Below, piece after piece: positions 8,425 to 60,679 of a stretch of 64,000 bases of DNA (positions are counted from its first letter, which is position 1; every line of letters begins with the position of its first letter). The notes under the pieces were generated by a model, which saw only the letters and a list, made by a program, of their open reading frames with translations, searched no databases and was not told where the DNA came from. Where the stretch lies: NCBI GenBank assembly GCA_963727865.1, contig CAVSHY010000017.1:109-64108 (forward strand), read 5' to 3'. Both the position numbers and the translations under genes were made by a program. Source of the DNA: an uncultured delta proteobacterium. Lineage in GTDB: Bacteria; Desulfobacterota; GWC2-55-46.

Positions 8425-8507
8425 TGGTGCGAGAGGGGGGAATCGAACCCCCATGGTTGCCCACCAGATCCTAAGTCTGGCGCGTCTGCCAGTTCCGCCA
8501 CCCTCGC
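8425..8507 (-). tRNA. tRNA-Leu (anticodon UAG), long variable arm, CCA encoded
   Basis: The reverse complement GCGAGGGTGGCGGAACTGGCAGACGCGCCAGACTTAGGATCTGGTGGGCAACCATGGGGGTTCGATTCCCCCCTCTCGCACCA has anticodon loop CTTAGGA. Confidence 0.93.
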
Positions 8508-8763: not shown

Positions 8764-10953
8764 CTACTTCTTGAGTTTAAACCTTCTTATGCTCTCCATG
8801 AGGTTTTTATTCATTTCGGCCATTTCATCAAATGACCTGTCGGTCTCTTTTGTCTTCTCTATATTTTCCATGGATACCTTCCTCACCGTGTCTATGGCTT
8901 CAAGTACCTTTACGGTATTCCTGCTCTGGTCCCTGACCAGATGCTTGATGTGCGTGATTATCTTATTAAGTTCTTCCATCGTCGCGGTAATATGGTTATT
9001 CGACTCGACCTGCGATCTTGCAGAACCTTTTACCTTATACGCTATCTCCGCCATGCGTTCCGATGCTTTATTGATAAGCTCGCTGCCTCTGGCCTGTTCC
9101 TGCGTGGCGTTTACTATTCTCCGGGTCATCCCGGCGACCTTCTCAATCGCTTCCACAACCATGCGGCTTTGCCGTGCTTGTTCTCCCGCGGCCTTTGCTA
9201 TCTCCAGGACGCTGCCGGTCGATCTCTGGGCGCTGCCGACTATCTTTTTAAGTCCTTCTCCGGATTCTATAGAAAGCCTTGCCCCTTCTTCAGCGTTCCC
9301 AAACCCCTTTTCTATCGACTTGACGGCCCTTTCGCTCTCTATTTCAACCGCCTGGATTATCTCAGAGACCTCCTTTGCCGATGTGGAGGTCCTTTCAGCA
9401 AGGTCCTTCATCTCGTTAGCGACAACAGAGAAGCTCTTGCCGTGTTCGCCGGATTGCGCCGCTATAATGGCGGCGTTAAGGGCCAGGAGGTTTGTCTCCT
9501 CCGCGACATCCTGAATTACATTCAGAATTTTATTTATCTCCTTGATCCTGTCGCACAGGCTATTCATAATAAGGGTTGACTCGCCGGCGGTCTCCTTGAT
9601 CTTCATTATGCCGTCTATTGAGCGCTCCACGGTCTCCATCCCGGCCCTGGCGTCCCTTATAACGCCGTCCGCGAACCTGGCGGCTTCCGCGGCGTTCGTC
9701 TCAACTTCCTTGATCCGCGCGTTTATCTGCGCCATGGATGCAGATACCTGGGTTATTGCGGAAGAAAGGTTTTCAATATTTTCAGAAATCTCCTTTATTG
9801 AGAAAGACATGTCTTTGGTCGATTCCGCCGTCTCGTCCACGCTTGAAAAAAGCGATTCCATGTTGTCCGCGATCTCGTTCACGCTCGCGCCGAGATCAAG
9901 CAGAGAGGAAGAACCGCGCTCAATTAATGATGCGAATATCCCGGTCTCCCGGGATATCTCATCCACGAACGCACCGATTTCCTCCATATTCTCCCTGATG
10001 GAATCCAGTGTCATTCCCTGCTTGTTGGACCCCTCAAGCACGTGCCTGCTCATTTCCAATACCCTGTCAGAGATCTCCCCTTCTCTCTCGGAAGCACGCC
10101 GTATCTCTTCGATAGCACCGTGGAAGTTTCTTACCAGATCATTTATGCGGGCGGCGAGGTCCCCTATCTCATCGTTCGATTCCACGGACACTTCATTTGT
10201 GAGGTCGCCCATGGCAAGATATTTCGTATTGTCAGAGAGGTTCAATATCGGGGTTGTCACGACCCGCCTGATAAAGTAAAGTCCCGCGAGACCCATAAGA
10301 AGCATAACGGCAAACCCGTAGCCGATGGAACGCCAGACCCATGAGACAGCCGCTGCTGTCTCGTCCTGTATGGGCACTACGATCTCAAGGCCCCCGATAA
10401 CATCTCCTATCCTGTAATCCCTCCTGGGGCTGGACGGGTAACTATTATGGCAATCGACGCAGGTCTGCGAGGTGGCTATATCAGGCACCATGTACCTCAG
10501 GGACTCTACTCCGTTATATTTTTCAAAGCTGAAGCGCCTGGTGTCGGCGCCTTTGGAAAACAGTTCGAGGGCCTCCCGCTGAAAAGAATCCTTCGGCGCG
10601 CTGGCCGGGTTGATGGGACTGAGGCTTACGATCCCAATGTGAAAATCGCTTTCACCGCCTAAAGACTGCGCGACCTCTTTTATGAAAGTGGCGGGAAGAG
10701 GGATCGATTTGTCGATATCGTGATATGACCCGCTTACGGTAAGGCCCGCGTCCAATGCCCTTTTGACGACTGTGGCGGTATAGAATTGCCTATCCGCGGT
10801 TATTTCCCTTGAAAGGTAGCTTGCCGTCGTCAAAGCCATCCTTCTGGTCTGCGCGATCCTTTCCCTGTAGATATAAACGCCGTAGATCCCGAAAATGACA
10901 GTCCAGATCAAAACTGCGAATATTAATAACTTGACCCTGATGCTAAACCTCAT
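8764..10953 (-). CDS. Methyl-accepting chemotaxis protein with a periplasmic heme-c (DUF3365/Tll0287-like) sensor domain
   Basis: N-terminal TM helix, then a periplasmic domain ending in CVDCHNSYPSSPRRDYRIGDVIGGLEIVVP (CxxCH plus the DUF3365-type tail). A second TM helix, a HAMP domain and a long helical signalling domain with TNLLALNAAIIAAQSGEHGKSFSVVANEMKDLAE follow. ATG 10953 is preferred over GTG 10962. Confidence 0.85.
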   Translation of the reverse strand: MRFSIRVKLLIFAVLIWTVIFGIYGVYIYRERIAQTRRMALTTASYLSREITADRQFYTATVVKRALDAGLTVSGSYHDIDKSIPLPATFIKEVAQSLGGESDFHIGIVSLSPINPASAPKDSFQREALELFSKGADTRRFSFEKYNGVESLRYMVPDIATSQTCVDCHNSYPSSPRRDYRIGDVIGGLEIVVPIQDETAAAVSWVWRSIGYGFAVMLLMGLAGLYFIRRVVTTPILNLSDNTKYLAMGDLTNEVSVESNDEIGDLAARINDLVRNFHGAIEEIRRASEREGEISDRVLEMSRHVLEGSNKQGMTLDSIRENMEEIGAFVDEISRETGIFASLIERGSSSLLDLGASVNEIADNMESLFSSVDETAESTKDMSFSIKEISENIENLSSAITQVSASMAQINARIKEVETNAAEAARFADGVIRDARAGMETVERSIDGIMKIKETAGESTLIMNSLCDRIKEINKILNVIQDVAEETNLLALNAAIIAAQSGEHGKSFSVVANEMKDLAERTSTSAKEVSEIIQAVEIESERAVKSIEKGFGNAEEGARLSIESGEGLKKIVGSAQRSTGSVLEIAKAAGEQARQSRMVVEAIEKVAGMTRRIVNATQEQARGSELINKASERMAEIAYKVKGSARSQVESNNHITATMEELNKIITHIKHLVRDQSRNTVKVLEAIDTVRKVSMENIEKTKETDRSFDEMAEMNKNLMESIRRFKLKK

Positions 10954-11155
10954 AATCCTCACGTTCCTCTGAAGTTTCAGATAGGGGGCATTTTCAAAAA
11001 AACAACGTAACTACGGCTATTTACCCGATATTATAGTATAAACTGGCTTTTTACAAGATTTTTCTATTAACGGTTTGCGGGAAAAGGAGATCTCTCAGAA
11101 TGGAAAAATACATAAGTATCAAGGAGGATAGTTACCGTAAAAAACTTCATCGTGC

Positions 11156-12697
11156 CTACACAACGCGCTTAGCGGCTTTAAGGTCGCCATGAAACCTAAC
11201 AAGGCTTCTCAGGAACCGGCGCCTCTCTACGGCGGAAAACCATGCCGTTTTTATCCATGTCCTGTCGACAGACTTTTTTAGAACCGGGGGACGTCGACTG
11301 TTGATACGCTCCGTTAGCCATTCATTTCCTCTTCTAAAATGACAATCCCCCGTTACACAGCCGGCGATGAAAACCCCGTCGAAGAGTCCATCCTCGACCG
11401 ACATCGCGATCATCGAAGGTTGAAGCTGACCTATGCACTGAAGCGTCAGTACCCTGGCCCATTCAAACCCCTTAAGGCTTTCCCCGCCGTCCATATAAAC
11501 CCCTTTCGCGCAGGAAAATACTAAAACTTTCGTATCCTGCCCCTCTTCTTTAAGTTCTTCCGAAAGTCTCTTTATCTCGCTTTTTAAATAATCCTCGGTC
11601 ATATCCGGCAGGCTCATGGCCTTATAATCACAGGACCCGGTGCATACGCCGCAGCTCGCGCACCTCTTGGGATTAACCACGGCCTCGAGGTCATACGGCA
11701 TATCGTCAGTCCTCGGCCTCATCCGTATGGCCTCATAAGGGCAATCCTCCATGCAGAGCTCGCACCCCGTGCAATTCCTGTACGTTACAACGGCCGCAGC
11801 CTTGCTCTCTTCGCGCGTAAGCCAGGGCACTATTGCTACTATCATTGTAACCGAAACCACAAAGAGCCATACGGCGCGCGCCGGCATATGCCTTAAGAGC
11901 GGATAGACAAACATGAAAAGCCAGTCAAAGGGCACGGCTGGAGAGAGCTTTTTAAGGTCAGCCGGAGGAGCGCTTACCGCCGGGTGGATTAGCGCGATGA
12001 CGAGAAGCGTTATTACGACCGCGTAAGCCATTACCCGCGGCGGTGTGATTATCGCCTTCGTAATCCTGCTCAAGTGCACCATGAGCAGTATAAAGACGAC
12101 CACTATGGAGAAAAAGTGTATGACGAGTATTATGTAGAAGAACTCATCCGTGATATTTTGAATGCTTGCGAAACTGATACTGAGGGGCATTCCCAAAAAT
12201 GGCACGCTCTCCAGCATCCGCGATGAAAACAGGGCTATAAACTTCGCCCTTTCGTCCCAGACCATCCAGTACCCGAATATGCCGCCTATCCATATTATCC
12301 ACATTAAAATCACGCCCGATACCCACGCGATCCATCTCCAGCGCTTGTACCTGTCGAGCGCGTAGCAGCGAAGCGTATGCATGATGCCCGCGAAGACAAG
12401 ACCCTCGGCTGAGTACCTGTGGAGGCTCCTCATAACCCCGCCCAGATACCACTGATCTGCCGTAAGATGCTTAACAGAGTCGTAGGCGCCCCGCGCCGTA
12501 ATAGTATAGAATATGAAAAGGTATATCCCTGAAATAATGATTATCCAGAGGAAAAATATGCCTATCGCGCCTATATAATAAAAGGGGTTATATTCGGAGG
12601 TTGTCAGGGCGTCTATGGTCTTTTCAACACTGAGCCATAGTTTCTCAATAACGCCCGCGGCTTCGAACTTTCTTACGTTTTCAGTATTTTTTGCCAT
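11156..12697 (-). CDS. Fusion protein: di-heme cytochrome b (6 TM) + 2x[4Fe-4S] ferredoxin + MvhD/FlpD-like domain (copy 1)
   Basis: Cytochrome b His pairs at canonical spacing (SLHRYSAEGLVFAGIMH and VIHFFSIVVVFILLMVH). A PEWY-equivalent loop PFDWLF. Cluster motifs CTGCELCMEDCP and CASCGVCTGSC. The C-terminus LQCIGQLQPSM...DGVFIAGCVTGDCHFRRGNEW resembles MvhD. The start is ATG 12697. Confidence 0.85.
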   Translation of the reverse strand: MAKNTENVRKFEAAGVIEKLWLSVEKTIDALTTSEYNPFYYIGAIGIFFLWIIIISGIYLFIFYTITARGAYDSVKHLTADQWYLGGVMRSLHRYSAEGLVFAGIMHTLRCYALDRYKRWRWIAWVSGVILMWIIWIGGIFGYWMVWDERAKFIALFSSRMLESVPFLGMPLSISFASIQNITDEFFYIILVIHFFSIVVVFILLMVHLSRITKAIITPPRVMAYAVVITLLVIALIHPAVSAPPADLKKLSPAVPFDWLFMFVYPLLRHMPARAVWLFVVSVTMIVAIVPWLTREESKAAAVVTYRNCTGCELCMEDCPYEAIRMRPRTDDMPYDLEAVVNPKRCASCGVCTGSCDYKAMSLPDMTEDYLKSEIKRLSEELKEEGQDTKVLVFSCAKGVYMDGGESLKGFEWARVLTLQCIGQLQPSMIAMSVEDGLFDGVFIAGCVTGDCHFRRGNEWLTERINSRRPPVLKKSVDRTWIKTAWFSAVERRRFLRSLVRFHGDLKAAKRVV

Positions 12698-12877
12698 CAA
12701 GCAGAGGATCCTTTGAAAGGGCGCGGGTATGGTAAATTAACTTCTGCATTATAGATTTTTTTCAGGGTTTTGTTAAGACGGAAATGCCGGCACAAAATCT
12801 CTTTTAACCGCTCTAAAAGTGGTTTTGCGCCGGGGCGGGAATTCCCCCGGAGTACCGGGCGGTCCTTATCAAGGCTT

Positions 12878-13468
12878 TTATTCGAGGACGAGCTTATTGG
12901 TAGCGTTGTCGAACCTCAGGAGTAAAATCTGCCTTGGTTTTATGTCAACGGTTTCTTCTATGGTAAAATCAGGCTTATCTTTAGCGCCGCTGTCATATAA
13001 ACCGGCGGAAATCCTGTGAGTCCCAGGTTTTACAATGAACTCATCATACGCGTAAGAGGCCATATCCCTCTTTATACCCTTCGGTTTATAAGCCCTGTCA
13101 AGCATAATATTGCCATCAACGGAAAGCTCAACGACCACGGGGAACCTTTCACGCGGGCAGCCGGACAACCTTCCCATGTTCATTTTTATGCGTTTTTCCG
13201 TCTTAAGGATTTCGCGGTATCTTTCGCCCTCTTTCTTGATGACATCGGCCTCGTTGCAGTTCGCTATCCTTTTCCCGGTGTGCTGGAAGGCCACTTTTAT
13301 TGACGCCTCGCCGGGAGAATAGAACGAATAGGAAGAATTCGAAAGATAAAATACCGGCAAAGCAAACATAACCAAAAGGACCACTATGACTTTTATGAGG
13401 CTTACCATGTCAAACGGTTTTTCCCCGCCAGCTTCAACCGATTTTTTATTTGTATGAGCATTACCCAT
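12878..13468 (-). CDS. Membrane-anchored hypothetical protein (single N-terminal TM, beta-rich extracytoplasmic domain)
   Basis: 196 aa. TM helix LIKVIVVLLVMFALPVFYL followed by a beta-strand-like pattern. Its ATG lies 2 nt after the stop of the upstream cytochrome b fusion, which suggests translational coupling. No family recognised. Confidence 0.6.
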   Translation of the reverse strand: MGNAHTNKKSVEAGGEKPFDMVSLIKVIVVLLVMFALPVFYLSNSSYSFYSPGEASIKVAFQHTGKRIANCNEADVIKKEGERYREILKTEKRIKMNMGRLSGCPRERFPVVVELSVDGNIMLDRAYKPKGIKRDMASYAYDEFIVKPGTHRISAGLYDSGAKDKPDFTIEETVDIKPRQILLLRFDNATNKLVLE

Positions 13469-13470
13469 GT

Positions 13471-15006
13471 TTAAACGCTCCTTTTGTCATTAAGGTTCTT
13501 ATGGAACTCTCCGAGTTCCTCCAAAAGCGGGCCTTTTTCCACAGCCGACAGCCACGCGGTCTTTATCCTGCTTCTATCTATCGATTTTTTGACTACAGGC
13601 GTACGGTAACCGTTGATGCGTCCCGCGAGCCATTCGTTGCCGCGCCTGAAGCTGCAATCGCCCAACCTGCATCCGGCGATAAAAACCCCGTCGACCCCTT
13701 TTTCAAAAGGTATATCAAGCATCGACGGCTGGAGAGTACCTATGCACTGAAGGGTTATAACCCGCGCCCATTCAAAACCCCTGACCTTGCCGCCAGCGTC
13801 AATTGTATCGTCCGGCCAGGCGCCCATGGCGCACGCGAATACTATTACCTTCTTACCGCGAGATGCCCCCATAAGTTCATCCGAAAGCTTCCCTATCTCA
13901 TTTTTTACCGCTTCTTCAGTCAGATCGGGGAAGTTAAGCGCCCTGTAATCGCACGCCCCCATGCATACGCCGCAGCTCGCGCACCTGCTCGGAATCACGA
14001 CGGCCTCGAGCTCATACGGCATGCCGTCTGTCCTGGGCCTCATCTGAATCGCCCCGTACGGGCAGTCTTCCTTGCAGAGCTCGCAGCCGGTGCAATTCTC
14101 TTTATGCACTTCTATCTCAGGGGTCTTCCTTACGCGGGTCAGCCAGGGGATAATGCTTACCATGAGAACCACGGAAACTATAAAGAGCCACAGTTCACGC
14201 TCAGAGAGGTATCTCAAGAGCGGGAAGACAAACATGTAAAACCAGTCAAAGGGCACGGACTGCGGCAGCACCTTGAGGTCAGCGGGGGCGGCGCTTACGG
14301 CGGGGCGGAGGAACGCCAAAAGGAACAGCACGAAAACGAGCACGTAGGCGACTGCTTTCGGCGGGTTAATTACGGACCTGGCGACCCTGCCCAGATGTAT
14401 CATAACGAGGACCGTGACGACTATTATGGAGACAAAGTGTATGGCAAGGATGAGATAGAATACCTGGTCCGCCAGGTTTTCGATCCTCGCGAAGCTAATG
14501 CTCAAGGGCATCCCGAAAACCGGTATCGATTCGATCATCCGCGATAAAAATATCGCGATAAACTTCGCCCTTTCATCCCACACCAGTACGTAGCCGAAGA
14601 TGCCTCCTATCCATATTATGAGGACCATCATTATCCCGGTTACCCATGAGACCCATCTCGTGTGCTTATACCTGTCGAGCACATAATGGCGCACCCCATG
14701 GGTCAGGGCGGCGATGACCAGACCGCCGGAGGCGTACCTGTGAAGGCTCCTGATGATCCCGCCGAGATACCACTGATGCACGGTAAGGTACTCGACGGAG
14801 TTATACGCCCCTGACGCGCTTATACCGTAGAATACGAAAAGGTAGATGCCGGTAATAAAGATTATCCAGAGGAAAAAGATGCTTACCGCCCCGAGATAAT
14901 AAAAGGGGTTGTATTCGGAAGTCGTCAAAAGGTTTAAAAACTTCTCAATCTTAAGCCAGAGGCCCCAGAGCGGGCCCGGCCTTTTATATGCTCTCGCGCC
15001 TTCCAT
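13471..15006 (-). CDS. Fusion protein: di-heme cytochrome b (6 TM) + 2x[4Fe-4S] ferredoxin + MvhD/FlpD-like domain (copy 2)
   Basis: Paralogue of 11156-12697 with the same architecture: SLHRYASGGLVIAALTH, AIHFVSIIVVTVLVMIH, PFDWFYMF, CTGCELCKEDCP, CASCGVCMGAC, LQCIGTLQPSM...DGVFIAGCRLGDCSFRRGNEW. The start is ATG 15006. Confidence 0.85.
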   Translation of the reverse strand: MEGARAYKRPGPLWGLWLKIEKFLNLLTTSEYNPFYYLGAVSIFFLWIIFITGIYLFVFYGISASGAYNSVEYLTVHQWYLGGIIRSLHRYASGGLVIAALTHGVRHYVLDRYKHTRWVSWVTGIMMVLIIWIGGIFGYVLVWDERAKFIAIFLSRMIESIPVFGMPLSISFARIENLADQVFYLILAIHFVSIIVVTVLVMIHLGRVARSVINPPKAVAYVLVFVLFLLAFLRPAVSAAPADLKVLPQSVPFDWFYMFVFPLLRYLSERELWLFIVSVVLMVSIIPWLTRVRKTPEIEVHKENCTGCELCKEDCPYGAIQMRPRTDGMPYELEAVVIPSRCASCGVCMGACDYRALNFPDLTEEAVKNEIGKLSDELMGASRGKKVIVFACAMGAWPDDTIDAGGKVRGFEWARVITLQCIGTLQPSMLDIPFEKGVDGVFIAGCRLGDCSFRRGNEWLAGRINGYRTPVVKKSIDRSRIKTAWLSAVEKGPLLEELGEFHKNLNDKRSV

Positions 15007-15081
15007 CAACTTTTGTCCTCTTTTTAATTTATTTCTTTAAATCAGGAAACTCCAGGTCTGTCATGCTGCAGGCTCCGATCT

Positions 15082-15912
15082 TCAGGGGCCGCGCCCAAAA
15101 CGCCTTCTCGAAAAATTCAGCATCCTGCGGCCCCATACCGCGATGAATACGGCCCCGATAAAAAGAAACTCCAGGAAGAAACCGACCAGCGTCGGATAAT
15201 CTATAACATTCCTGCCCGTAACGGGATCATACCTGGTACAGAAAAAAGCTATCCTTGTTATCAATGAAGTGGTTCTTGAAGTCTGCGCTTTCCCCGTAAG
15301 GAGTTCTTCTATCCTCAAGCCGATTGAATTTGACTGGGTCCTTACGCCGTATACCTGCTTATAGATAACGCCGTCAGGCCTTATGACCGACGCCATATCT
15401 ATATGGTCAAAACCGCCTGTATCATTCCGTACATGGAAAAAACCGAATTGCCCGGTCAGCTTTTCCATCGTCGCCTCATCGGATGTGGCAAACCTGAAAT
15501 TCCTGAAGTCCGAAGTAAAACGGCGCCCATACTCCTTGAGTTTTTCAGGCTTATCCCTTGCGGGGTCGAAGGCTATGCTTAAGACGTTAAACCTGTCGCC
15601 GAACTTTTGCCGCGCCTCGTTGACAGCCTTTTTAAATTCCGCCGTTATTGTCGGGCAGACATCCTTACAGGTCGTGTATATGAAACTTACCACGAGGGGT
15701 TTACCGGTCTTAAAATATTCGCTCAGCTTAAATCCCGCGCCGTCCTGGTCAATCAGGTTATAATCGTCAAGCCTTGCGCCTTCCGCCCTTGCGGAGTTTT
15801 CAAAGGCTTTCCTCAGCGCCTCGACATCCGCGTCCCGCGCGAAAACGCCTGAAGGCAGCAAAAACATCATTAAAGCCGGCAAAAAATATGCGATCCTGTA
15901 ACACGGGTTCAT
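15082..15912 (-). CDS. SCO1/SenC family copper chaperone (thioredoxin fold), with a signal peptide and a C-terminal TM anchor
   Basis: CxxxC motif in FIYTTCKDVCPTITAEF and a downstream His (GGFDHID). The sequence is SCO1/SenC-like overall. The C-terminal hydrophobic helix is LVGFFLEFLFIGAVFIAVW. Confidence 0.85.
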   Translation of the reverse strand: MNPCYRIAYFLPALMMFLLPSGVFARDADVEALRKAFENSARAEGARLDDYNLIDQDGAGFKLSEYFKTGKPLVVSFIYTTCKDVCPTITAEFKKAVNEARQKFGDRFNVLSIAFDPARDKPEKLKEYGRRFTSDFRNFRFATSDEATMEKLTGQFGFFHVRNDTGGFDHIDMASVIRPDGVIYKQVYGVRTQSNSIGLRIEELLTGKAQTSRTTSLITRIAFFCTRYDPVTGRNVIDYPTLVGFFLEFLFIGAVFIAVWGRRMLNFSRRRFGRGP

Positions 15913-16281: not shown

Positions 16282-17802
16282 TTACCCCTCTATCTTCTTA
16301 CCGAAGAAAATCGTTCCGAAGGCTATCAGTATGAAAAGAAGCCCTCCCACAACAGCTAATATCGCTGCTATGGCGAACGCGCTCAGGAACAGGAACGCGG
16401 TCGGGTCGAAGCTGAAGGGAAACGTCGCGCCTGAGAACGTTACGTCATAATGCCTTCTCGGTATGCCGAAGATACCCGAGCTCATCATGAATATCGACTG
16501 AAGCCCGATGGCTATGCCATAAAGATAGGGCTGGATCTGCGCCAGGCCTTTCCAGATAATCCTTCTCCTGAAGACATAGGGGATGAGGAGATAGGTGAAG
16601 CCCATGAAAGCGACCGTGGTGCCGGCGACGACCGTGCCGTGGAAGTGGCCTGTTATCGCCCAGGTATTATGACGGATGATATTATACTGGAGGGTGCCGA
16701 AGATGACGCCAGTGATACCGCCTATAAAGCCGAAGTTAAAGATCGAGATCACGATCCCGGAGAAAGCCGGATTACCCCACGGGGCCTTTTTAAGCCACTC
16801 GAAAAGCCCTCTCGTGTGGCCCTGCTCCCTGAGAGCGACTTCCATGGACGCGGGTATCGCGAAGGCATGGATCATGCTCGCCAGGACCGCCAGATGCATG
16901 ACGTAGCCGGTGTTCGCTATCTTATGCCAGGTGCCGATGACCGGGTCGACGAGCAGGTGGTGCTCGGAGGCGACGTTAATGAAGAGTATGTATAATATGA
17001 AGGCCGTTCTTGAGAGCTTTTCATTTACCGGCTTGCCGCCAAGAACCAGCGAGGAGGTCATGTACCATACCGCGACCATCGCGCAGACGTTTATCTGCTG
17101 CGAAGCGTGGCCAAGGCCCCAGAATACAAGCCTGTAGGCCGAGGGGTTTATCGACGGAATGTAGTCCAATGACCATAACAATGTCGGCACAAATATCCCG
17201 GCGCCGTGAAGGAGAGTAAAAATCCCTATTATGCTCGCCGCGCCAATGCCAAAGGTCCCGAGGGGAAGCGACCTCTTATACCCCCCCTCTCTCTTGGAGA
17301 GGGTTATGTTTACGAAGAAGAGTATGAATCCTAATAAGGCGCCTACGGCAAAGAGTATGACGCCGACGTAATAAAGAGGATCGGCCCTTAAAGGAACGTA
17401 GGAGGTGAATAAAACGTCTCCCCCTCCCATCAGGACCACGACGTTAATGACCGCCCCGCCTATAAGCATGAGCGCGAAGCCAAGCCACCCCAGACCCGGC
17501 CAGTGAGACCGGGTGCCAAGAAGCGCGGCAGAGGCGAAATGAACGAGCGCGATCTCGAAAAAGATTATCCACGCGAGCAAGGCGTCTATGCCGTGCAGCG
17601 TCAGAAACCTGTAGAAGAAAACAAGCGGAAGCAGATGCACGCTTGGCCACCTTGTCATCGCGACCAAGAAAGCAAAAAGCCCGCCTACCGCCAGGGTCGC
17701 GAAGGCCGCTATCAAGTTCCACTTGATAAGGTTAGCCGTGCCCTTGTCAATCCTGGCCTTAAGGCCGTCAAAGGGACTTTGCCATAGATCCAAGTCTGCC
17801 AT
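16282..17802 (-). CDS. Heme-copper oxidase superfamily subunit I, ba3 (B-family)-like but lacking the cross-linked Tyr (HASQQ); possibly NO-reductase-type
   Basis: 506 aa and about 12 TM helices. By-eye alignment with Thermus ba3 CbaA covers FLTLHG (heme b His), FWGLGHASQQ (ba3 has WWTGHPIVY), SEHHLL (ba3 has GFHHQF) and NTWAITGHFHGTVVAG (ba3 has NTAWVPGHFHLQVASL). Confidence 0.9.
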   Translation of the reverse strand: MADLDLWQSPFDGLKARIDKGTANLIKWNLIAAFATLAVGGLFAFLVAMTRWPSVHLLPLVFFYRFLTLHGIDALLAWIIFFEIALVHFASAALLGTRSHWPGLGWLGFALMLIGGAVINVVVLMGGGDVLFTSYVPLRADPLYYVGVILFAVGALLGFILFFVNITLSKREGGYKRSLPLGTFGIGAASIIGIFTLLHGAGIFVPTLLWSLDYIPSINPSAYRLVFWGLGHASQQINVCAMVAVWYMTSSLVLGGKPVNEKLSRTAFILYILFINVASEHHLLVDPVIGTWHKIANTGYVMHLAVLASMIHAFAIPASMEVALREQGHTRGLFEWLKKAPWGNPAFSGIVISIFNFGFIGGITGVIFGTLQYNIIRHNTWAITGHFHGTVVAGTTVAFMGFTYLLIPYVFRRRIIWKGLAQIQPYLYGIAIGLQSIFMMSSGIFGIPRRHYDVTFSGATFPFSFDPTAFLFLSAFAIAAILAVVGGLLFILIAFGTIFFGKKIEG

Positions 17803-18005
17803 CTTAAAAACCTCCCTTTCTGATTTAAACTATCCGGGATCGTCCCGGTAACCCGCTATTCCAGGCTTGCGCCTTATTATTACTTCAATAAATCCAGGCC
17901 GGCATGATTGTGGACGCGGTTCTGGCGGGCCTGCGCGCTATTAAAACCCTCCCCCTCTCCCTCCACGGCCAATCACAAACCATGATTCCGGCAACGCGGC
18001 TCCGC

Positions 18006-18140
18006 TCAGCGGACGTTCCAGACCTCTACAAGCCATTTCAGGTGCGCGAACCACGCTATCATGAATGTCGCCAGGAATATTAAAGCCAGGACAAATACGC
18101 CGGGGGCTTCCATATGTTCGCCGTGCTTTTCGTCTGACAT
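18006..18140 (-). CDS. Small single-TM subunit (ba3 subunit IIa-like), 44 aa; absent from the ORF track
   Basis: GGAGGCAAAG precedes the ATG. Translation is MSDEKHGEHMEAPGVFVLALIFLATFMIAWFAHLKWLVEVWNVR, with one hydrophobic helix. It lies between the subunit II and subunit I genes, the position occupied by the third small subunit in ba3-type operons. Confidence 0.55.
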   Translation of the reverse strand: MSDEKHGEHMEAPGVFVLALIFLATFMIAWFAHLKWLVEVWNVR

Positions 18141-18170
18141 CTTTGCCTCCTTTTAAATTAACCCTGCCGC

Positions 18171-18698
18171 TTATTCTTTTACGTACAATTTCCCCGCCAT
18201 CGTATGATGGCCGAAGCCGCAGAACTCGTTGCAGATGATATGAAACTCGCCGGAGGTCGTCGGAGTAAGGGTAAGCACGTTGTCATATCCGGGGAAGACC
18301 ATGAAGTTCATATCAATGGGCTGGAGCGAAAAGCCGTGGTTGAGGTCCATGGATGATATATGGAACTTATAGGTCTTACCCTTCTCGAGTTCGAGTATCG
18401 GATACCATTCCCACATCTTGGCCCTCAGGAAAACGGGCTCGTTCGCCGGCGGGTGAACTATCGGCATGCCCTGTTCCTCGCCGACCTTGTATTTCGACAC
18501 CATGTTCTCGGTAAGCTTGTCGTAGTCTTCAGGGGTGATCGTATATGTCTCATTGGGCGGGTTATGCGCGCCGATCACTTTGTATACGGGCATGAAGAAA
18601 AAAGTAAAGAGCGCCCATATAAGCGCCACGGTTACCCACAACCTCTCATCCTTGCTGAGAGGCTTCCACCAGATTCTTTCAGGCTCATGTATTGCCAT
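18171..18698 (-). CDS. Heme-copper oxidase subunit II with a CuA cupredoxin domain (ba3-type)
   Basis: One N-terminal TM helix. CuA ligands are present: DLNHGF ... ICNEFCGFGHHTM (CxExCGxxHxxM). The C-terminus resembles ba3 CbaB (EYRIICNQYCGLGHQNM). ATG 18698 is preceded by AAGGAGGA. Confidence 0.9.
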   Translation of the reverse strand: MAIHEPERIWWKPLSKDERLWVTVALIWALFTFFFMPVYKVIGAHNPPNETYTITPEDYDKLTENMVSKYKVGEEQGMPIVHPPANEPVFLRAKMWEWYPILELEKGKTYKFHISSMDLNHGFSLQPIDMNFMVFPGYDNVLTLTPTTSGEFHIICNEFCGFGHHTMAGKLYVKE

Positions 18699-18711
18699 TC
18701 TCAAATCCTCC

Positions 18712-18879
18712 TTATTGAGCTATATAGAGCGCGGGCGGCGTTAAATAAAATATGTCTATAAGCCCCCATACCGTAAAGATCACGGTCGGTATAATAAGGC
18801 CCAGGACCAACCATAAATACATATTGTCATAAATGGCCTGGTTCCCCGGGTAAGGCCCTTCTTTCCTGTCCGCATGCAT
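18712..18879 (-). CDS. Small membrane protein (55 aa), first gene of the oxidase operon
   Basis: GGGAGGAG lies 6 nt upstream of ATG 18879. Translation is MHADRKEGPYPGNQAIYDNMYLWLVLGLIIPTVIFTVWGLIDIFYLTPPALYIAQ, with one TM helix. It ends 8 nt before the subunit II ORF. Confidence 0.5.
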   Translation of the reverse strand: MHADRKEGPYPGNQAIYDNMYLWLVLGLIIPTVIFTVWGLIDIFYLTPPALYIAQ

Positions 18880-19280
18880 AGGCGCTCCTCCCTTCAGATT
18901 TATTATTACGGTTTTTAAAAATCGTACCAATAGAATATTAACAATAGCGTATACCGTAAATGACTTTTGTCAACCTTTTAAAAATAGACGGTGTTTTTTT
19001 AAAATTAAAAATTAAGCTGAATCGGAGATGTGTTACCCGGATATTTCCCTTTAAATGGCCGGTTAAACCTGCCGGGTTTTTAGCGTCGGGAGACAGCCAA
19101 GGTTCCTTCGATTTAGAACGCAAAGCGGGCGCCGGGCGAATTGGACTTGCGTACACTTTAGTATGAAGGAGAAAAACATGTAAAATCAACCTAATTAGAA
19201 TTTTTTTCAATTTTACATCAACTTTTTAAGGCTGTCAAATCAGGGGGTAGAGATTACGCGATAAAAACAAAAAAAGAACA

Positions 19281-19303
19281 GGCAGGCCCTTTAGCGGCCT
19301 GCC
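19281..19303 (-). terminator. Rho-independent terminator after the porin (pseudo)gene
   Basis: Stem GGCAGGCC/GGCCTGCC with a 7-nt loop. On the minus strand it is followed by a long T-rich run (TGTTCTTTTTTTGTTTTT). Confidence 0.7.
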
Positions 19304-19343: not shown

Positions 19344-20791
19344 TTAGAAGTTCGCCGTAAGCTGAAGATACGCCCAGTCCTGAGCAGTATTTGACGCGCC
19401 TACGTTGTCCTTTATCCATGTACCGGGGATAAAGTGGCCGTAGCCTACCTCGGCTGTTACCGCGTTATTGTACTTGTAGGTTCCCACGAGGTCAATTTCG
19501 TTCCCGAGGGTCTTGTTTGTGCTGGCGACGGTTCCGGCAGGAGCGATGGCAGTGGCTCGCTCCATTAGCGATACCCGCGCTATTCCATTTTCCGGCCTGG
19601 TACCACGCGTCTTCCTTCTGCGCGAGGTTGAAGTTCCACCACGCGGCATAGAGCCTGACCTTATCCATCGGTTCCGCGCTCACGTTCAGGTTGAAGGCGC
19701 TGATGTTCCTCCACGCTACGAGGTCCATGAGGCCGAGCTTGTCGTGGTTCGTCGGGAAGAGGTTGGAGAAGGTCTTATTATCGACGTGTCGGTGCTGTTT
19801 GTGCCTGTGGCGTAGTCATACTCGACGCCCACGTTGACCTTGTTCGGTATCGGGAGCGTGTAGTTTGCCTTTGCCGCGACGGCGTAAGCGTTTAACTTGT
19901 CGTTCGCGCCTATTGCGGTTGCGTTGGTTGAGGGGTGGTTGCTTCCGGTCTGGAAGGGCACTTCAACGCCGTAATCAAACCCCATGTAAGAGCCCGCGAG
20001 CCTTGCGCCGAAAGTATTAAGTGTTGCGCCCTTTGTAGGCAGAGTCGCGAGGGCGGTAGTGCCGCCAAAAGGATTGGAGGTGCAGAAGCTTGAAGGAGTA
20101 ATAACACCGGCTGTAGTGCAGCCGACGTTTCCGTCCCTGACGAGCAACGCGTAGACATCGAGGGTATTGTTCGGGATCGCCTTTATAGTGGCGTATACGA
20201 CCCCAGAAGTCAACGTCATTGCCTGAAACGGTAGTGGCAGTCGGCGTCGCGCTGGTCGCCATGTTTCTTTCGGTCAGCTTTGACCACCATGCGTCTACAT
20301 TGAACATGTCAGAGGCGTAGACGAACTTCAAGGCGTCGAACGCCCTTCCCTGGTTGGACCAGCCAAACGAGCCCACGAGCCTCTGGTCGCCGTAGACGAG
20401 TTCCTGCCGTCCGGCCTTTAACGCTACCGGCGCGCCGAGGAGGTTATCTATGTTCACGTATGCCTCGTGCACGTCAATAGCATTGGCTGATCGCCGTTGG
20501 TCAGGTGCAGGTCCCGCCAGCCGAAGCGAGCCCTTCCTGGCCCCATGTCCTTGAGTCCTGTAGTGTTATCTTCAGCGTTGTGTCGTCCGTAGCCTTTACG
20601 TTGGCCGTGAGCCTTGTCCTCTCGAGCCAGAAGTCCTGCGCGTCCTTGGTGTTCTTGTTAAAATGAAGGCTGTCCCTCCACTCGGTCCTCAGTCTTTCCT
20701 GTCCGCTGAATGTGACATCCGCCGCGTTTGAGGGTGCTGCCCACGCAACTGCGACAGCCGCCGCAAAAACCGACAATAAAATTCTCTTCAT
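19344..20791 (-). pseudogene. Outer-membrane beta-barrel porin (alginate-export/AlgE-like family) broken by at least five frame changes
   Basis: Four ORF-track fragments in three frames join into one protein. The pieces are the signal peptide MKRILLSVFAAAVAVAWAAPSNA, then HEAYVNIDNLLGAPVALKAGRQELVYGDQRLVGSFGWSNQGRAFDALKF, and the C-terminal barrel signature ...DWAYLQLTANF. Frame changes are near 20515, 20485, 20203 (a C4 run), 19788 and 19560. Confidence 0.7.
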
Positions 20792-21213: not shown

Positions 21214-22190
21214 TTAGATTACCCCGGCTTTTACGAGGTCATGCATGTGCACTACCCCGATGACCGCGCCGTTATCCCCGTCATATACGAATAGCGAAGT
21301 TATGGAGTGCTCCTCCATCATCCTTAAAGCCGCCTCCGCAAGCGACCCTTTCGGGATCAGCTTGGGGCTTCTATTCATAACATCCCTGACTCTTTTATTA
21401 AGGATGTTATCCCCCTCTGAAAGCGCCCTTCTCAGGTCCCCGTCGGTTATGACCCCGGCGAGCTTATGCTTTCCCTTTCCAATGAAGACCCCGGCGACGC
21501 CCAGCCGTTTCGCGGTAATCTCGACTATGACGTCTTTCATCGGCGTATCCGTGGACACCCTCGGAACAGCGTCCCCTGTGTGCATTAGGTCCTCGACCTT
21601 CATGAACCTTCTCCCGATGCTTCCGGCGGGGTGAAGCGCGGCGAAGTCCTCTACCCTGAACCCGCGCCTCTCGAGGAGGGCGATAGCCAGGGCGTCCCCC
21701 ATGGCGAGGCACGCCGTGGTGGATGCGGTGGAGAGAGCCCCAGGGGGCACGCCTCCTCTTTGACCCCGACGTCGAGGGTAACGTCGCTATTTTGCGCGAG
21801 GGTCGAGTCCTTTTTCCCGGTCATCGCTATCATCCTGATGCCAAGCCTCTTTACGACCTGGAGTATCTTTATAAGCTCCGCGGTCTCTCCTGAATTTGAG
21901 ACCGATAGAAGTATGTCGTTTTTCATGACCATCCCGAGGTCCCCGTGCACGCCTTCCGCCGGGTGGAGGAAAAAGGCGGAGGTGCCGGTGGAGGCGAAAG
22001 TGGACGCTATCTTCTGGCAGATTATCCCGCTTTTGCCCATCCCGCTCACGACGACCTTCCCCGTAGTTGAAAAAATCATCTCAACCGCTTTTGAAAAATT
22101 CCCGTCTAACCTGTCAATGAGCGATTTTACCGCCCGGGATTCTATCTCAAGGACCCGCTTCGCGGTAACTATGGCAGTATCTTGCTTCAT
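21214..22190 (-). CDS. kdsD: Arabinose-5-phosphate isomerase KdsD (SIS + 2 CBS), interrupted by one frameshift in this sequence
   Basis: The N-terminal ORF has the SIS domain (GMGKSGIICQKIASTFASTG). The C-terminal ORF continues with STASTTACLAMGDALAIALLERRGF plus tandem CBS domains. The junction is at the G5/C5 run 21743-21747. Adding one base restores ...EEACPxGALSTASTTA. Confidence 0.85.
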
Positions 22191-23160: not shown

Positions 23161-24835
<1,675 letters not shown>

Positions 24836-25841: not shown

Positions 25842-25929
25842 GCCGGAGTGGTGAAACTGGTAGACGCGCGGGACTCAAAATCCCGTGGGGTATCCCCCCG
25901 TGCGGGTTCGACTCCCGCCTCCGGCACCA
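25842..25929 (+). tRNA. tRNA-Leu (anticodon CAA), long variable arm, CCA encoded
   Basis: GCCGGAGTGGTGAAACTGGTAGACGCGCGGGACTCAAAATCCCGTGGGGTATCCCCCCGTGCGGGTTCGACTCCCGCCTCCGGCACCA. The anticodon loop is CTCAAAA. Confidence 0.93.
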
Positions 25930-45539: not shown

Positions 45540-46556
45540 ATGAAAACTAAAGTATATATTTTAGGTGCTGGAGCTTCGAAACCAGCTGGTTGTCCCCTGA
45601 TAAAAGATTTCATTGGTGAAGGTTTTTTTCATTTAATAAATAATTCTGCCTTTCCTGACAATTTAAGTAATTACATAGAATTTTGTAAATATTTAAAAGA
45701 AAAATATAAGTTTGATTTTTGTAATTCTGGTCGTTCAGATCTCTTAGCATTTTTGTGTTATCAGAAAATAGACATAGAAACAATAATATCGGAACTTGAT
45801 AAAGAAATTCGTCAAGGCAAGAAAGATTTGATAGAAGCAAGACGGCAGGCTGTAAGATTTGTTTATGCCACTTTAGAGAATGCAGCCAGGGATGGTTCTA
45901 ACGAAGACTGTTATCCAGATTTCGTAAAAAACAAAATCGTAAACTTAGATGATGAACATGTGATAATTACTTTTAACTATGAAACTTGCTTAGAAAAGGC
46001 TATCCAAGATAAATTTCGTTATTATTTTTCATATTTATTAGATGTGGATAAAGATAAAATTATACATTTTCATAGTTATCAAAAAAAATATACTAATAAT
46101 CTGAAAATACTGAAATTGCATGGTTCATTAAATTGGGCTATATGCTCCGGCTGTAATAAGATACATTTATTTTGGTCACATAAATATGATGATATTTTTA
46201 AAGAAAAATGCAAAAACTGCGATCACAGTCTAGACTCGATCTTAATTGCCCCAACAAAATATAAAGAGCTTGATAAAAATTTAGAGAAGCTCTGGGACAT
46301 CGCAAGGGAGAAAATTATAGCAGCAGACGAAATTGTTATTATCGGATATGCTTTTAATGAATATGACAAAGAAGCTTTCAAGTTGTTTGGAGAGTCCATA
46401 AAATGTAATAAAAAGTCTCCTATGCTTTTTATTGCAGACCCTAATGCATGTGATATATACAAAAAGATTACTTCTAACTTCTCGGTGAAGGATGAAAATT
46501 TTTCTAATAGAGTTTTTTCCCAAGGGTTTAGAGAATACATCAACATATGCCTTTAA
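45540..46556 (+). CDS. Stand-alone SIR2_2-type (sirtuin-like NAD-utilising) protein with a zinc ribbon
   Basis: 338 aa. N-terminal YILGAGASKPAGCPL, IITFNYETCLE (catalytic Asn context), LKLHGSLNW (catalytic His), CSGCNK...CKNCDH zinc ribbon, and VIIGYAFNEYD. The gene is strongly AT-rich: 7/60 and 19/60 G+C in two spot-counted lines, against 27/60 in the adjacent OsmC-family gene. Confidence 0.7.
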   Translation: MKTKVYILGAGASKPAGCPLIKDFIGEGFFHLINNSAFPDNLSNYIEFCKYLKEKYKFDFCNSGRSDLLAFLCYQKIDIETIISELDKEIRQGKKDLIEARRQAVRFVYATLENAARDGSNEDCYPDFVKNKIVNLDDEHVIITFNYETCLEKAIQDKFRYYFSYLLDVDKDKIIHFHSYQKKYTNNLKILKLHGSLNWAICSGCNKIHLFWSHKYDDIFKEKCKNCDHSLDSILIAPTKYKELDKNLEKLWDIAREKIIAADEIVIIGYAFNEYDKEAFKLFGESIKCNKKSPMLFIADPNACDIYKKITSNFSVKDENFSNRVFSQGFREYINICL

Positions 46557-59345: not shown

Positions 59346-59678
59346 ATGGAAACTTACTACAATCCCAATGACCTTGCCAAGTTCCCTTCCATAGGCGAAG
59401 GGGCGCCGGATCTATGGAAGAAATTCAACGAATGGTACGGCGCCGTATTCAGGGAAGGCGCGCTCACGGAAAGGGAGAAGGCTTTGATCGCGCTCGCCGT
59501 CGCCCATGCGGTGCAATGTCCTTACTGCATAGACGCCTACACGCAATCATGCCTTGAAAAAGGATCGAATAAAGAACAGATGACAGAAGCGATCCATGTA
59601 GCCTCGGCCATAAGGGGCGGGGCCTCGCTTGTTCACGGGGTGCAGATGAAAAACGCCGCTGAAAAAATAGGGATGTGA
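59346..59678 (+). CDS. AhpD/carboxymuconolactone-decarboxylase-fold protein (arsenosugar-biosynthesis-associated peroxidase-like)
   Basis: 110 aa. CxxC in AVQCPYCIDAY. It overlaps (TGATG) the downstream radical SAM gene, the usual pairing for this family. Confidence 0.75.
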   Translation: METYYNPNDLAKFPSIGEGAPDLWKKFNEWYGAVFREGALTEREKALIALAVAHAVQCPYCIDAYTQSCLEKGSNKEQMTEAIHVASAIRGGASLVHGVQMKNAAEKIGM

Positions 59679-60679
59679 TGGAGAAGATTGTTATGGGGCC
59701 GAATTCAAATACCCCCCTGAAGTTAAAGCCCTTCGATGAGTCGCTTAAACGCGCGAATCTATACCCCCTCACCTCGTCAGGGATAACGCTATTTCAGGTA
59801 AACATGGGCAGGCTCTGCAACCAGGCATGCCGCCACTGCCACGTGGACGCCGGCCCCAAAAGGACCGAAGTCATGTCAGGCGCTGTCATGAGCCTCATCC
59901 TCGACATTCTAAAAAAGGAAAGACACCCGGTAGTTGATATAACGGGCGGGGCCCCTGAGATGAACCCCGGGTTCATGAGCTTCGTTGAAAGCTGCGTTGA
60001 TATCGGGTGCCGCGTAAAGACCCGTACAAACCTCACCATCCTCAACGAAGACGGGTATGAGGATCTGCCGGAATTCTTCGCTGAAAATAAGGCGGAGGTC
60101 ATAGCCTCACTGCCCTATTTTCTCCCCGATTCCGCCGATAGGATGCGCGGGAGCGGCGTCTTCGACTCCTCGATCAAGGCTCTTTTAAAATTGAACTCCC
60201 TTGGTTACGGCATGGAAGGCACGGGGCTAATACTCAATATCGTATATAACCCGTGCGGGGCCTTTTTGCCACCGGCTCAAAAAGCCGTTGAGATGGACTT
60301 TCGAAGGGAACTGAAAAAACGCCACAATATAAGCTTCACTAACCTTTTTACGATAACAAACATGCCGGTAGGAAGGTTTTTAAAATTTTTGAAGGATTCA
60401 GGCAACCTTGAACGCTACATGGAAAGACTCTACAAAGCGTACAATTCTACGGCGGCGGCCAACGTGATGTGCAGAAATACTCTTTCAATAGGATGGGACG
60501 GTGTCCTTTATGACTGCGACTTTAACCAGATGCTCGGGCTTAAATGCGATCATGGGGCGCCTGATCATCTTAAGGATTTTGATAATAAAAGGCTCGCGGC
60601 AAGGCATATTGTTACAGGCCCTCATTGCTATGGATGTACCGCTGGCGGAGGGTCGAGCTGCTCAGGGGCTACGGCGTAA
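59678..60679 (+). CDS. arsS: Radical SAM / Cys-rich C-terminus protein ArsS (arsenosugar biosynthesis type)
   Basis: The radical SAM motif sits in VNMGRLCNQACRHCHVDAGPKRTEVM. The C-terminal Cys-rich tail is GPHCYGCTAGGGSSCSGA (a Cys form; some homologues carry Sec here). Confidence 0.8.
   Translation: MEKIVMGPNSNTPLKLKPFDESLKRANLYPLTSSGITLFQVNMGRLCNQACRHCHVDAGPKRTEVMSGAVMSLILDILKKERHPVVDITGGAPEMNPGFMSFVESCVDIGCRVKTRTNLTILNEDGYEDLPEFFAENKAEVIASLPYFLPDSADRMRGSGVFDSSIKALLKLNSLGYGMEGTGLILNIVYNPCGAFLPPAQKAVEMDFRRELKKRHNISFTNLFTITNMPVGRFLKFLKDSGNLERYMERLYKAYNSTAAANVMCRNTLSIGWDGVLYDCDFNQMLGLKCDHGAPDHLKDFDNKRLAARHIVTGPHCYGCTAGGGSSCSGATA

Follow-up and report, generated by a model that had tools for sequence, protein, structure and literature searches.

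A haem-copper gene cluster on the minus strand

The DNA analysed here is a stretch of 64,000 nucleotides from an uncultured delta proteobacterium (contig CAVSHY010000017.1 of assembly GCA_963727865.1; the whole stretch is referred to as the window). On its minus strand, from about 19.2 kb down to 11.1 kb, there lies a single gene cluster, its domains assigned with Pfam and NCBIfam, around subunits I and II of a haem-copper enzyme, which a first-pass annotation had read as a candidate nitric oxide (NO) reductase and which we assign below, with the reservations given there, to the eNOR family. The gene for subunit I (16282..17802; Pfam COX1, E=7e-54) encodes a protein of 506 amino acids (aa). 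Upstream of it lies the gene for subunit II (18171..18698; Pfam COX2, NCBIfam CoxB), the ATG of which stands behind an AGGAGG site, while an alternative TTG start at 18704 is present in the list of open reading frames (ORFs). Two small one-helix ORFs fall within the range covered by the first-pass annotation but had gone unmentioned there: one encoding a 55-aa membrane protein (18712..18879), located directly upstream of subunit II and provided with a GGGAGGAG ribosome-binding site, and one of 44 aa (18006..18140), located between subunits II and I.

Downstream of subunit I, the cluster continues with a SCO1/SenC copper chaperone carrying a CxxxC motif (CKDVC; 15082..15912; Pfam SCO1-SenC, E=2.5e-20), a fusion of cytochrome b, two [4Fe-4S] motifs and FlpD (13471..15009; Pfam Cytochrome_B, Fer4 and FlpD), a 196-aa protein with an N-terminal membrane anchor (12878..13468) that had no Pfam, NCBIfam or PDB sequence match, and a second copy of the fusion (11156..12700), which Pfam likewise recognised and which is a diverged paralogue of the first. 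All of these genes are on the minus strand. A consensus scan placed a promoter-like site (TTGACA-17-TAAAAT, 11/12 matches; 19210..19238, minus strand) upstream of the operon, a match that is no evidence of function, and a terminator-like hairpin of the preceding gene (19281-19303) just before that site. The same kind of scan gave the second fusion copy a promoter-like site (12748-12776) and a terminator-like hairpin (11148-11165) of its own.

Active site and channel residues of subunit I

The best solved relative of subunit I was subunit I of the Thermus ba3 oxidase (CbaA; E about 1e-35), and its matches among solved structures were B-type oxidases only. Residues were paired by means of a HMMER alignment to ba3 and an alignment of 57 sequences. 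In these alignments, His70 paired with ba3 H72, His232 with H233, His281 and His282 with H282 and H283, and His386 and His388 with H384 and H386, confirming that the six metal-ligand histidines named in the first-pass annotation are kept. By homology, His70 and His388 would then ligate the low-spin haem and His386 the high-spin haem, with His232, His281 and His282 as predicted ligands of the non-haem metal.

The three active-site deviations that the first-pass annotation had picked out were also borne out. Gln236, four residues after the first CuB histidine, falls on the cross-linked Tyr237 of ba3, giving the motif GHASQQ versus the ba3-type GHPxVY. The position six residues before the HH pair, which we take to be where cbb3 oxidases carry their tyrosine, is occupied by Ile275. 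Directly before the HH pair stands Glu280 (SEHH), on ba3 Phe281. As for the proton path, the predicted channel residues in subunit I are Ser309, Tyr247 (corresponding to ba3 Tyr248) and His312, and alignment and comparison with the ba3 residues indicated that Ser309, Tyr247 and Glu18 of subunit II (corresponding to ba3 Glu15) are conserved.

An AlphaFold2 model of subunit I, built from 20 homologues, reached a mean predicted local distance difference test score (pLDDT) of 80 and a predicted template modelling score (pTM) of 0.86. When known folds were ranked against it, ba3 came out best (TM score 0.86, root-mean-square deviation about 2.8 A), followed by the Aquifex B-type enzyme and then by A-type oxidases, with cbb3 lower (0.68-0.74). 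Neither a sequence search nor a fold search found an eNOR structure in the PDB. The enzyme thus compared (Thermus thermophilus ba3; PDB 1EHK, 1XME) resembles that of the window in its six histidines, its CuA subunit, the small one-helix gene before subunit II, and the K-channel residues Tyr248, Ser309 and Glu15(II). Unlike ba3, however, the window enzyme has Gln for Tyr237, Gln for Val236, Asn for Trp239 and His for Thr312, as well as an invariant Glu83 in helix II where ba3 has Ile, and the two are only about 25-30% identical.

Homologues and phylogeny

The motif GHxxQQ was present in all of the 120 closest database homologues (55-89% identical), in 240/240 further homologues collected with proteobacterial and Bacteroidota seeds, and in each of the 86 genomic loci that were fetched, and it held among homologues down to 42% identity. 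The Gln whose conservation the first-pass annotation had left to be verified is therefore found in all 360 homologues and 86 loci, and the HASQQ codons are genuine. The protein of the window itself had no exact entry when public assemblies were looked up. In a scan with one genome per species, a relative was present in at least 598 species; a published count lists eNOR in 547 GTDB genomes (PMC11214002).

The conservation of Glu280 is of another kind. Although SEHH occurs in 105/120 of the closest homologues, it was found in only about 20 of the 86 loci, its carriers being mostly 'short' forms of about 505 aa from Deltaproteobacteria-labelled metagenome-assembled genomes (MAGs), Nitrospinota and Nitrospirota. 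Because most eNOR-type sequences have ASAHH (Thermomicrobium has GAMHH), this Glu does not separate the family from O2 reductases. The added carboxylate put forward in the first-pass annotation is specific to a subclade.

When 43 sequences were compared over 493 columns in a neighbour-joining tree with 200 bootstraps, all Gln-bearing sequences came together in one clade (192/200 bootstraps), within which the window protein was nested. The sister of this clade was a group that retains the tyrosine, with the motif GH[ST][LA]QY (the pair being supported by 200/200 bootstraps), and the classical GHPxVY B-type sequences fell outside both. The Gln clade includes proteins of the haloarchaeon Natrarchaeobius (43% identity) and of Thermus megaplasmids (44-45%), and also extends to Thermomicrobium, Anaerolineales, Alpha-, Beta- and Gammaproteobacteria and 'Deltaproteobacteria'; this taxonomic spread agrees with that reported for eNOR. 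Some of its members carry GHFK instead of GHFH, corresponding to a His-to-Lys exchange at the low-spin haem: two of the fetched loci (L060 and L078), the Thermus protein, and 107/120 homologues of a set centred on Bacteroidota and Aquificota, all of them with QQ.

The sister group (represented by P0125, P0126, P0128 and P0134) is 36-42% identical to the window protein and shares Glu83, Gln235, Asn238, Tyr271 and His312 with the Gln clade, but keeps Tyr236. This shows that it is essentially one exchange in the active site, Tyr to Gln, that sets the Gln clade apart from its nearest relatives. As they keep Tyr236, the members of the sister group are presumably still O2 reductases, and eNOR seems to have arisen from an O2-reducing stock of this kind.

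Probable assignment to the eNOR family

The residue at the tyrosine site has been described as diagnostic of the haem-copper families: Gln identifies eNOR, Asn sNOR, Glu cNOR and qNOR, and Tyr the O2 reductases (PMC8756737, section 2.7.1 and Table A4). The eNOR family was proposed by Hemp & Gennis in 2008 (via PMC8756737) and is derived from the B-family, with a CuA subunit and K-channel-like residues including Ser309 (PMC11214002). The eNOR of Rhodothermus marinus (R. marinus; Rmar_0161) reduced NO but not O2 (Murali et al. 2024, PMC11214002). Haem As occupied both haem sites in the R. marinus enzyme, the only one to which this biochemistry extends, and a His/Lys-ligated low-spin haem is a peculiarity of some eNORs (PMC11214002). 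Other enzymes of this kind are the 'cytochrome a1-like' protein of Magnetospirillum and those of Ferrigenium straubiae, which a 2026 preprint classed as eNOR following Murali et al. (2024), and Ca. Accumulibacter.

The window enzyme has the Gln at the tyrosine site, the closeness to the B-family, the CuA subunit II with its Glu, and the Ser309-containing K-channel-like residues; some of its clade-mates show the His/Lys haem variant, and its operon has SCO1 together with cytochrome b/Fe-S genes and a gene for a protein without known function. Judged from these sequence features, the cluster probably encodes an eNOR-family NO reductase that is an offshoot of the B-type (ba3-like) oxidases, a reading to which we give a probability of about 0.8. 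This supports the NO-reductase-type interpretation from which the analysis started, the Gln being the published diagnostic of eNOR and the protein being nested in the Gln clade. The implied novelty was too high: eNOR is a described and biochemically validated family (PMC11214002) that had already been reported in Deltaproteobacteria (PMC8756737), and the window protein adds a member to it.

Its differences from the other eNORs lie in the short subunit I (506 aa), the last helix of which is encoded by the 44-aa gene upstream of subunit I, in Glu280 before the His pair where most eNORs have Ala, and in an operon that has two fusion copies, no haem o synthase gene and no denitrification genes nearby.

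Other families of the superfamily were also considered, of which sNOR, gNOR, nNOR, cNOR and the plain B-type oxidases each fall at a defining residue. Both sNOR and bNOR need an Asn in place of Gln236, and sNOR is without Ser309, which is invariant here. For gNOR, one metal His should be replaced by Asp and subunit II should be devoid of CuA, while the window enzyme has three His and a full CuA site. A Glu as fourth ligand is needed in nNOR, cNOR and qNOR, at the position of Gln236; moreover, the low-spin haem is His/Met-ligated in nNOR and predicted to be His/His-ligated here. With cNOR and qNOR (e.g. NorBC of Pseudomonas aeruginosa), the window enzyme would have in common the conversion of two NO to nitrous oxide (N2O) at a haem/non-haem metal site with three His and no Tyr cofactor. 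Those enzymes are, however, related to the C-family, carry Glu at the Gln site, use a cytochrome c subunit or quinol instead of CuA, and have no conserved cytoplasmic proton channel (PMC11214002). A B-family O2 reductase of the ba3 type, finally, needs the His-Tyr cofactor of GHPxVY, where GHASQQ is found.

Subunit II, the small ORFs and SCO1

Subunit II consists of one N-terminal membrane helix and a cupredoxin domain, and aligned with ba3 CbaB (E=2e-13) with all CuA ligands (H...CxEFCGFGHxxM) intact. The likeness of both subunits to Thermus CbaA and CbaB and the intactness of the CuA site, both noted in the first-pass annotation, are thereby upheld. Among 85 subunit II relatives, the CuA ligands and Glu18 were at least 93% conserved. 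Glu18 appears to fall at the position of ba3 Glu15(II), the K-channel entrance.

Relatives of the 55-aa ORF were detected with tblastn at the equivalent position in 63/86 loci, and small ORFs are annotated there in Thermus, Thermomicrobium and Defluviimonas. In the ba3 operon of Thermus, the subunit IIa gene (cbaD) presumably stands at this spot. The 44-aa ORF shows homology to an additional C-terminal helix that subunit I carries in its forms of 555-582 aa (with the extension ...PGTxxLVxxFxxxFxxYYFxNWKxLxxVWxxR in the alignment), and therefore represents a part of subunit I that has become separate. With tblastn, it matched the 3' end of subunit I, or a place just past it, in 45 loci. In slightly more distant short forms the gene for this helix is separate and follows subunit I, while in the window and its closest relatives it has come to stand in front of subunit I. 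The role of SCO1/SenC is probably in assembly of the CuA site.

Neighbours and partners of subunit I in related loci

When genes within about 7-9 kb of subunit I were counted in the related loci, hemerythrin was found in 23 loci, cytochrome cd1 nitrite reductase (NirS) in 16, Crp/Fnr regulators in 12, NirJ-like radical SAM proteins in 10, NosR-like proteins in 8, and NnrS and Rrf2 regulators in 6 loci each. This gene context of the relatives supports an NO-related role. On Thermus megaplasmids, as seen on the Thermus thermophilus plasmid pTthSNM6-6b (6179-16190), genes for a cytochrome P460 and for a cupredoxin-domain multicopper oxidase lie beside the eNOR-type genes, which also adjoin an Rrf2 regulator and a ScdA_N-domain protein; the cytochrome b fusion and SCO1 are both absent from this locus (L084).

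Partners were counted over the 63 related loci in which the sequence behind subunit I extends for 5.5 kb or more. The cytochrome b/Fe-S/FlpD fusion was present in 61 of these, the 196-aa protein and SCO1 in 59 each, haem o synthase (CtaB) in 42 and CtaA in 3. According to the preprint, the eNOR operon of Ferrigenium straubiae comprises eNOR II and eNOR I together with haem o synthase, sco1, a scaffold protein and a pair of cytochrome b/Fe-S genes; this type of layout recurs in the window and in 59-61 of the 63 loci. The preprint regards the cytochrome b/Fe-S genes beside eNOR as unusual and specific to Ferrigenium, and we found no other paper mentioning such genes next to eNOR, in a check that did not extend to the supplement of PMC11214002. 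Both the fusion and the 196-aa protein are near-constant across at least ten phyla.

In the fusion, a b6-like dihaem cytochrome b is joined to two [4Fe-4S] motifs of the form CxxCxxCxxxCP and to an MvhD/FlpD-like domain. All three Pfam domains were found in 54/54 fusion homologues, with the four haem histidines and the twelve cluster cysteines invariant throughout. As far as the sequence can be read, there are six membrane helices in the cytochrome b part, along with a PFDWF motif that is PEWY-like; with six helices, the Fe-S domains would lie in the cytoplasm. The two copies in the window are only 59% identical over 511 aa, which indicates that the duplication is old. Fusion versions of about 700 aa with an extra domain occur in some loci.

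The 196-aa protein follows directly after the cytochrome b fusion in the 59 loci that have it. Besides its N-terminal membrane anchor it has a domain of roughly 150 aa, of which two cysteines (Cys71 and Cys104) are conserved in the alignment. A profile search against PDB sequences gave only chance-level matches, and a single-sequence structure model (pLDDT 55) was too poor for a fold search. The protein may be the 'eNOR scaffold protein of unknown function' of the Ferrigenium preprint.

Only two well-flanked loci were without the fusion, namely those of Thermus and Thermomicrobium, the latter having a CtaA-CtaB fusion. That the cytochrome b fusion replaces CtaA is speculation only; two loci carry both, so that the pattern is not complementary.

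Flanking genes and other features of the window

The cluster is flanked by tig-clpP-clpX-lon on one side and by a porin gene, kdsD, kdsA and pyrG on the other, and the closest relatives show the same arrangement. Directly downstream of the second fusion copy lies a gene for a methyl-accepting chemotaxis protein (8764..10962, minus strand; Pfam Tll0287-like, a periplasmic sensor, with HAMP and MCPsignal). Among the related loci, none but the closest (L001-L003, L005 and L006) have this chemoreceptor at the equivalent place; its link to the operon is uncertain, and it may guide the cell in a gradient of gas or redox conditions.

Elsewhere in the window, an ORF with SIR2_2 and AbiH-like domains (45540-46556) is possibly an anti-phage defence gene, and a radical SAM protein with a DUF3641 domain is encoded at 59675-60679. 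An Rfam scan of the window returned nothing but four tRNA genes (2166-2239, 2301-2373, 8428-8507 and 25842-25926), none of them in the operon.

Three neighbouring genes are broken in the window but single and intact in a syntenic MAG (L001; GCA_003499885.1). Relative to this MAG, pyrG (23161-24826) and kdsD (21214-22190) have one frameshift each, and the gene for the Alginate_exp-type porin (19344-20791) has at least four, from which it follows that the window assembly contains indels. Because pyrG and kdsD are normally essential, assembly errors are likelier than pseudogenes.

Proposed function

In the function that we propose, electrons from a periplasmic donor would enter at CuA of subunit II, the copper of which would be loaded by SCO1. 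They would then pass to the low-spin haem (His70/His388) and on to a binuclear site made up of the high-spin haem (His386) and the non-haem metal (His232, His281 and His282), where two NO would be turned into N2O and water. Protons would probably arrive from the cytoplasm along a K-channel-like path leading from Glu18 of subunit II via Tyr247 and His312 to Ser309; such cytoplasmic uptake is suggested by the conserved channel residues, as has been proposed for the family, and would make the NO step electrogenic. With Gln236 in place of the redox-active His-Tyr cofactor, no fourth electron would be at hand for O2 reduction. While the anatomy of the sequence, its placement in a family, the conservation and the gene context come from the present analysis, we infer NO as the substrate, the identity of the non-haem metal, the haem type and the proton uptake by analogy with the R. 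marinus enzyme and from the literature.

Several points weigh against this reading. The turnover of the R. marinus enzyme is low, at 0.68 NO per second (PMC11214002), so that NO reduction as main physiological role is not beyond doubt even for the family as a whole. Those stretches of the 64-kb window that were annotated showed no nir, nor or nos gene, and the operon's neighbours are housekeeping genes; the operon misses the haem o synthase that most related loci have, and neither CtaA nor CtaB is encoded in the window. Parts of the ba3 K-channel have also changed, with Thr312 replaced by an invariant His, Thr315 by Ala, Tyr244 by Val and Ser261 by Asn. Finally, the tree contains neither Rmar_0161 nor the eNORs of Magnetospirillum, Accumulibacter and Ferrigenium. 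Profile searches seeded from proteobacterial and Bacteroidota members returned only unnamed or differently named relatives and no eNOR named in the literature, and the accession that PMC8756737 cites did not turn up among the members when the cluster of the Thermus protein was looked up. Placement in eNOR receives indirect support from the His/Lys variant, the taxonomic spread and the Ferrigenium-type operon.

Alternative explanations

That the cluster encodes a working B-family O2 reductase, with another residue such as Tyr271 acting as the cross-linked tyrosine, appears improbable to us. The enzyme does match ba3 in its fold, its CuA subunit and its six histidines, SCO1 and small subunits are typical oxidase accessories, and Tyr271 on helix VII is invariant across the Gln clade. 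However, Tyr271 lies ten residues before His281 and not six, as in cbb3, at the site of which Ile275 is found. It is, moreover, just as invariant in the sister group that retains Tyr236, and is therefore more likely a feature of the lineage than a migrated cofactor. Murali et al. found no migrated tyrosine in these families, nor O2 reduction by the R. marinus enzyme (PMC11214002). An sNOR-type enzyme, to which the first-pass annotation had likened the locus by its order of subunit II, subunit I and SenC, is more improbable still, the likeness leading to the wrong family. The order is present, and sNOR (norSY-senC of ammonia oxidisers) is B-family-derived as well, has a CuA subunit and a SenC/SCO gene next to it, and lacks the tyrosine; but it has Asn at the tyrosine site where the window protein and every relative examined have Gln, it misses Ser309, and II-I-SCO is also the standard order of eNOR loci.

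The eNOR-clade enzyme could further have a non-respiratory job, either in NO detoxification alone or as the terminal module of a larger complex with the cytochrome b/Fe-S/MvhD-like fusion, by way of another electron route or acceptor, which we consider unlikely. It would fit with the near-universal presence of the fusion and the 196-aa protein, with the low turnover and lack of denitrification genes mentioned above, and with the supercomplex proposed in the Ferrigenium preprint, in which the reduction of NO is coupled with that of NAD+. On the other hand, many related loci are embedded among nirS, nirJ, nosR and nnrS, eNOR is expressed under denitrifying conditions in Ferrigenium and Accumulibacter, and nothing at this locus points to another substrate. 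Only a negligible chance is left for the HASQQ codons or the whole gene being an assembly artefact or a decaying pseudogene. The frameshifts in pyrG, kdsD and the porin gene do lie at most 6 kb from the operon; yet all ORFs of the operon are full length and in frame, the motif is common to every homologue examined, and a 90%-identical copy is present in an independent MAG (L004).

Implications for the lineage and the eNOR family

Of broader value is the census of partners, in which the fusion and the 196-aa protein emerge as core partners of eNOR genes and CtaA is rare. We tentatively raise the possibility, without favouring it, that eNOR may not be a free-standing two-subunit enzyme but the terminal part of a conserved module of four to six proteins. 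On this view, members of the Glu280 subclade could bind the non-haem metal with four ligands, in the manner of cNOR. It is conceivable that the partners connect NO reduction with the quinone pool or with low-potential carriers of the cytoplasm; if true, electrons would have a new way into a haem-copper enzyme, or such an enzyme a new mode of energy coupling. It is also conceivable that they form an oxygen-independent maturation system for its a-type haem, which would bear on a question that the Ferrigenium preprint raises, namely how eNOR can be made under anoxia. The association with these accessory genes deserves follow-up.

For the organism, the assignment is of consequence as well. Databases routinely mislabel eNORs as cytochrome oxidases, and under such a label this uncultured lineage would wrongly become an O2 respirer and a source of N2O would be hidden, which the eNOR label corrects. 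The family, in turn, gains a short-form, Glu280-bearing branch; and if the fusion and the 196-aa protein prove to be partners in electron transfer or maturation, the energetic view of NO reduction by eNOR would change.

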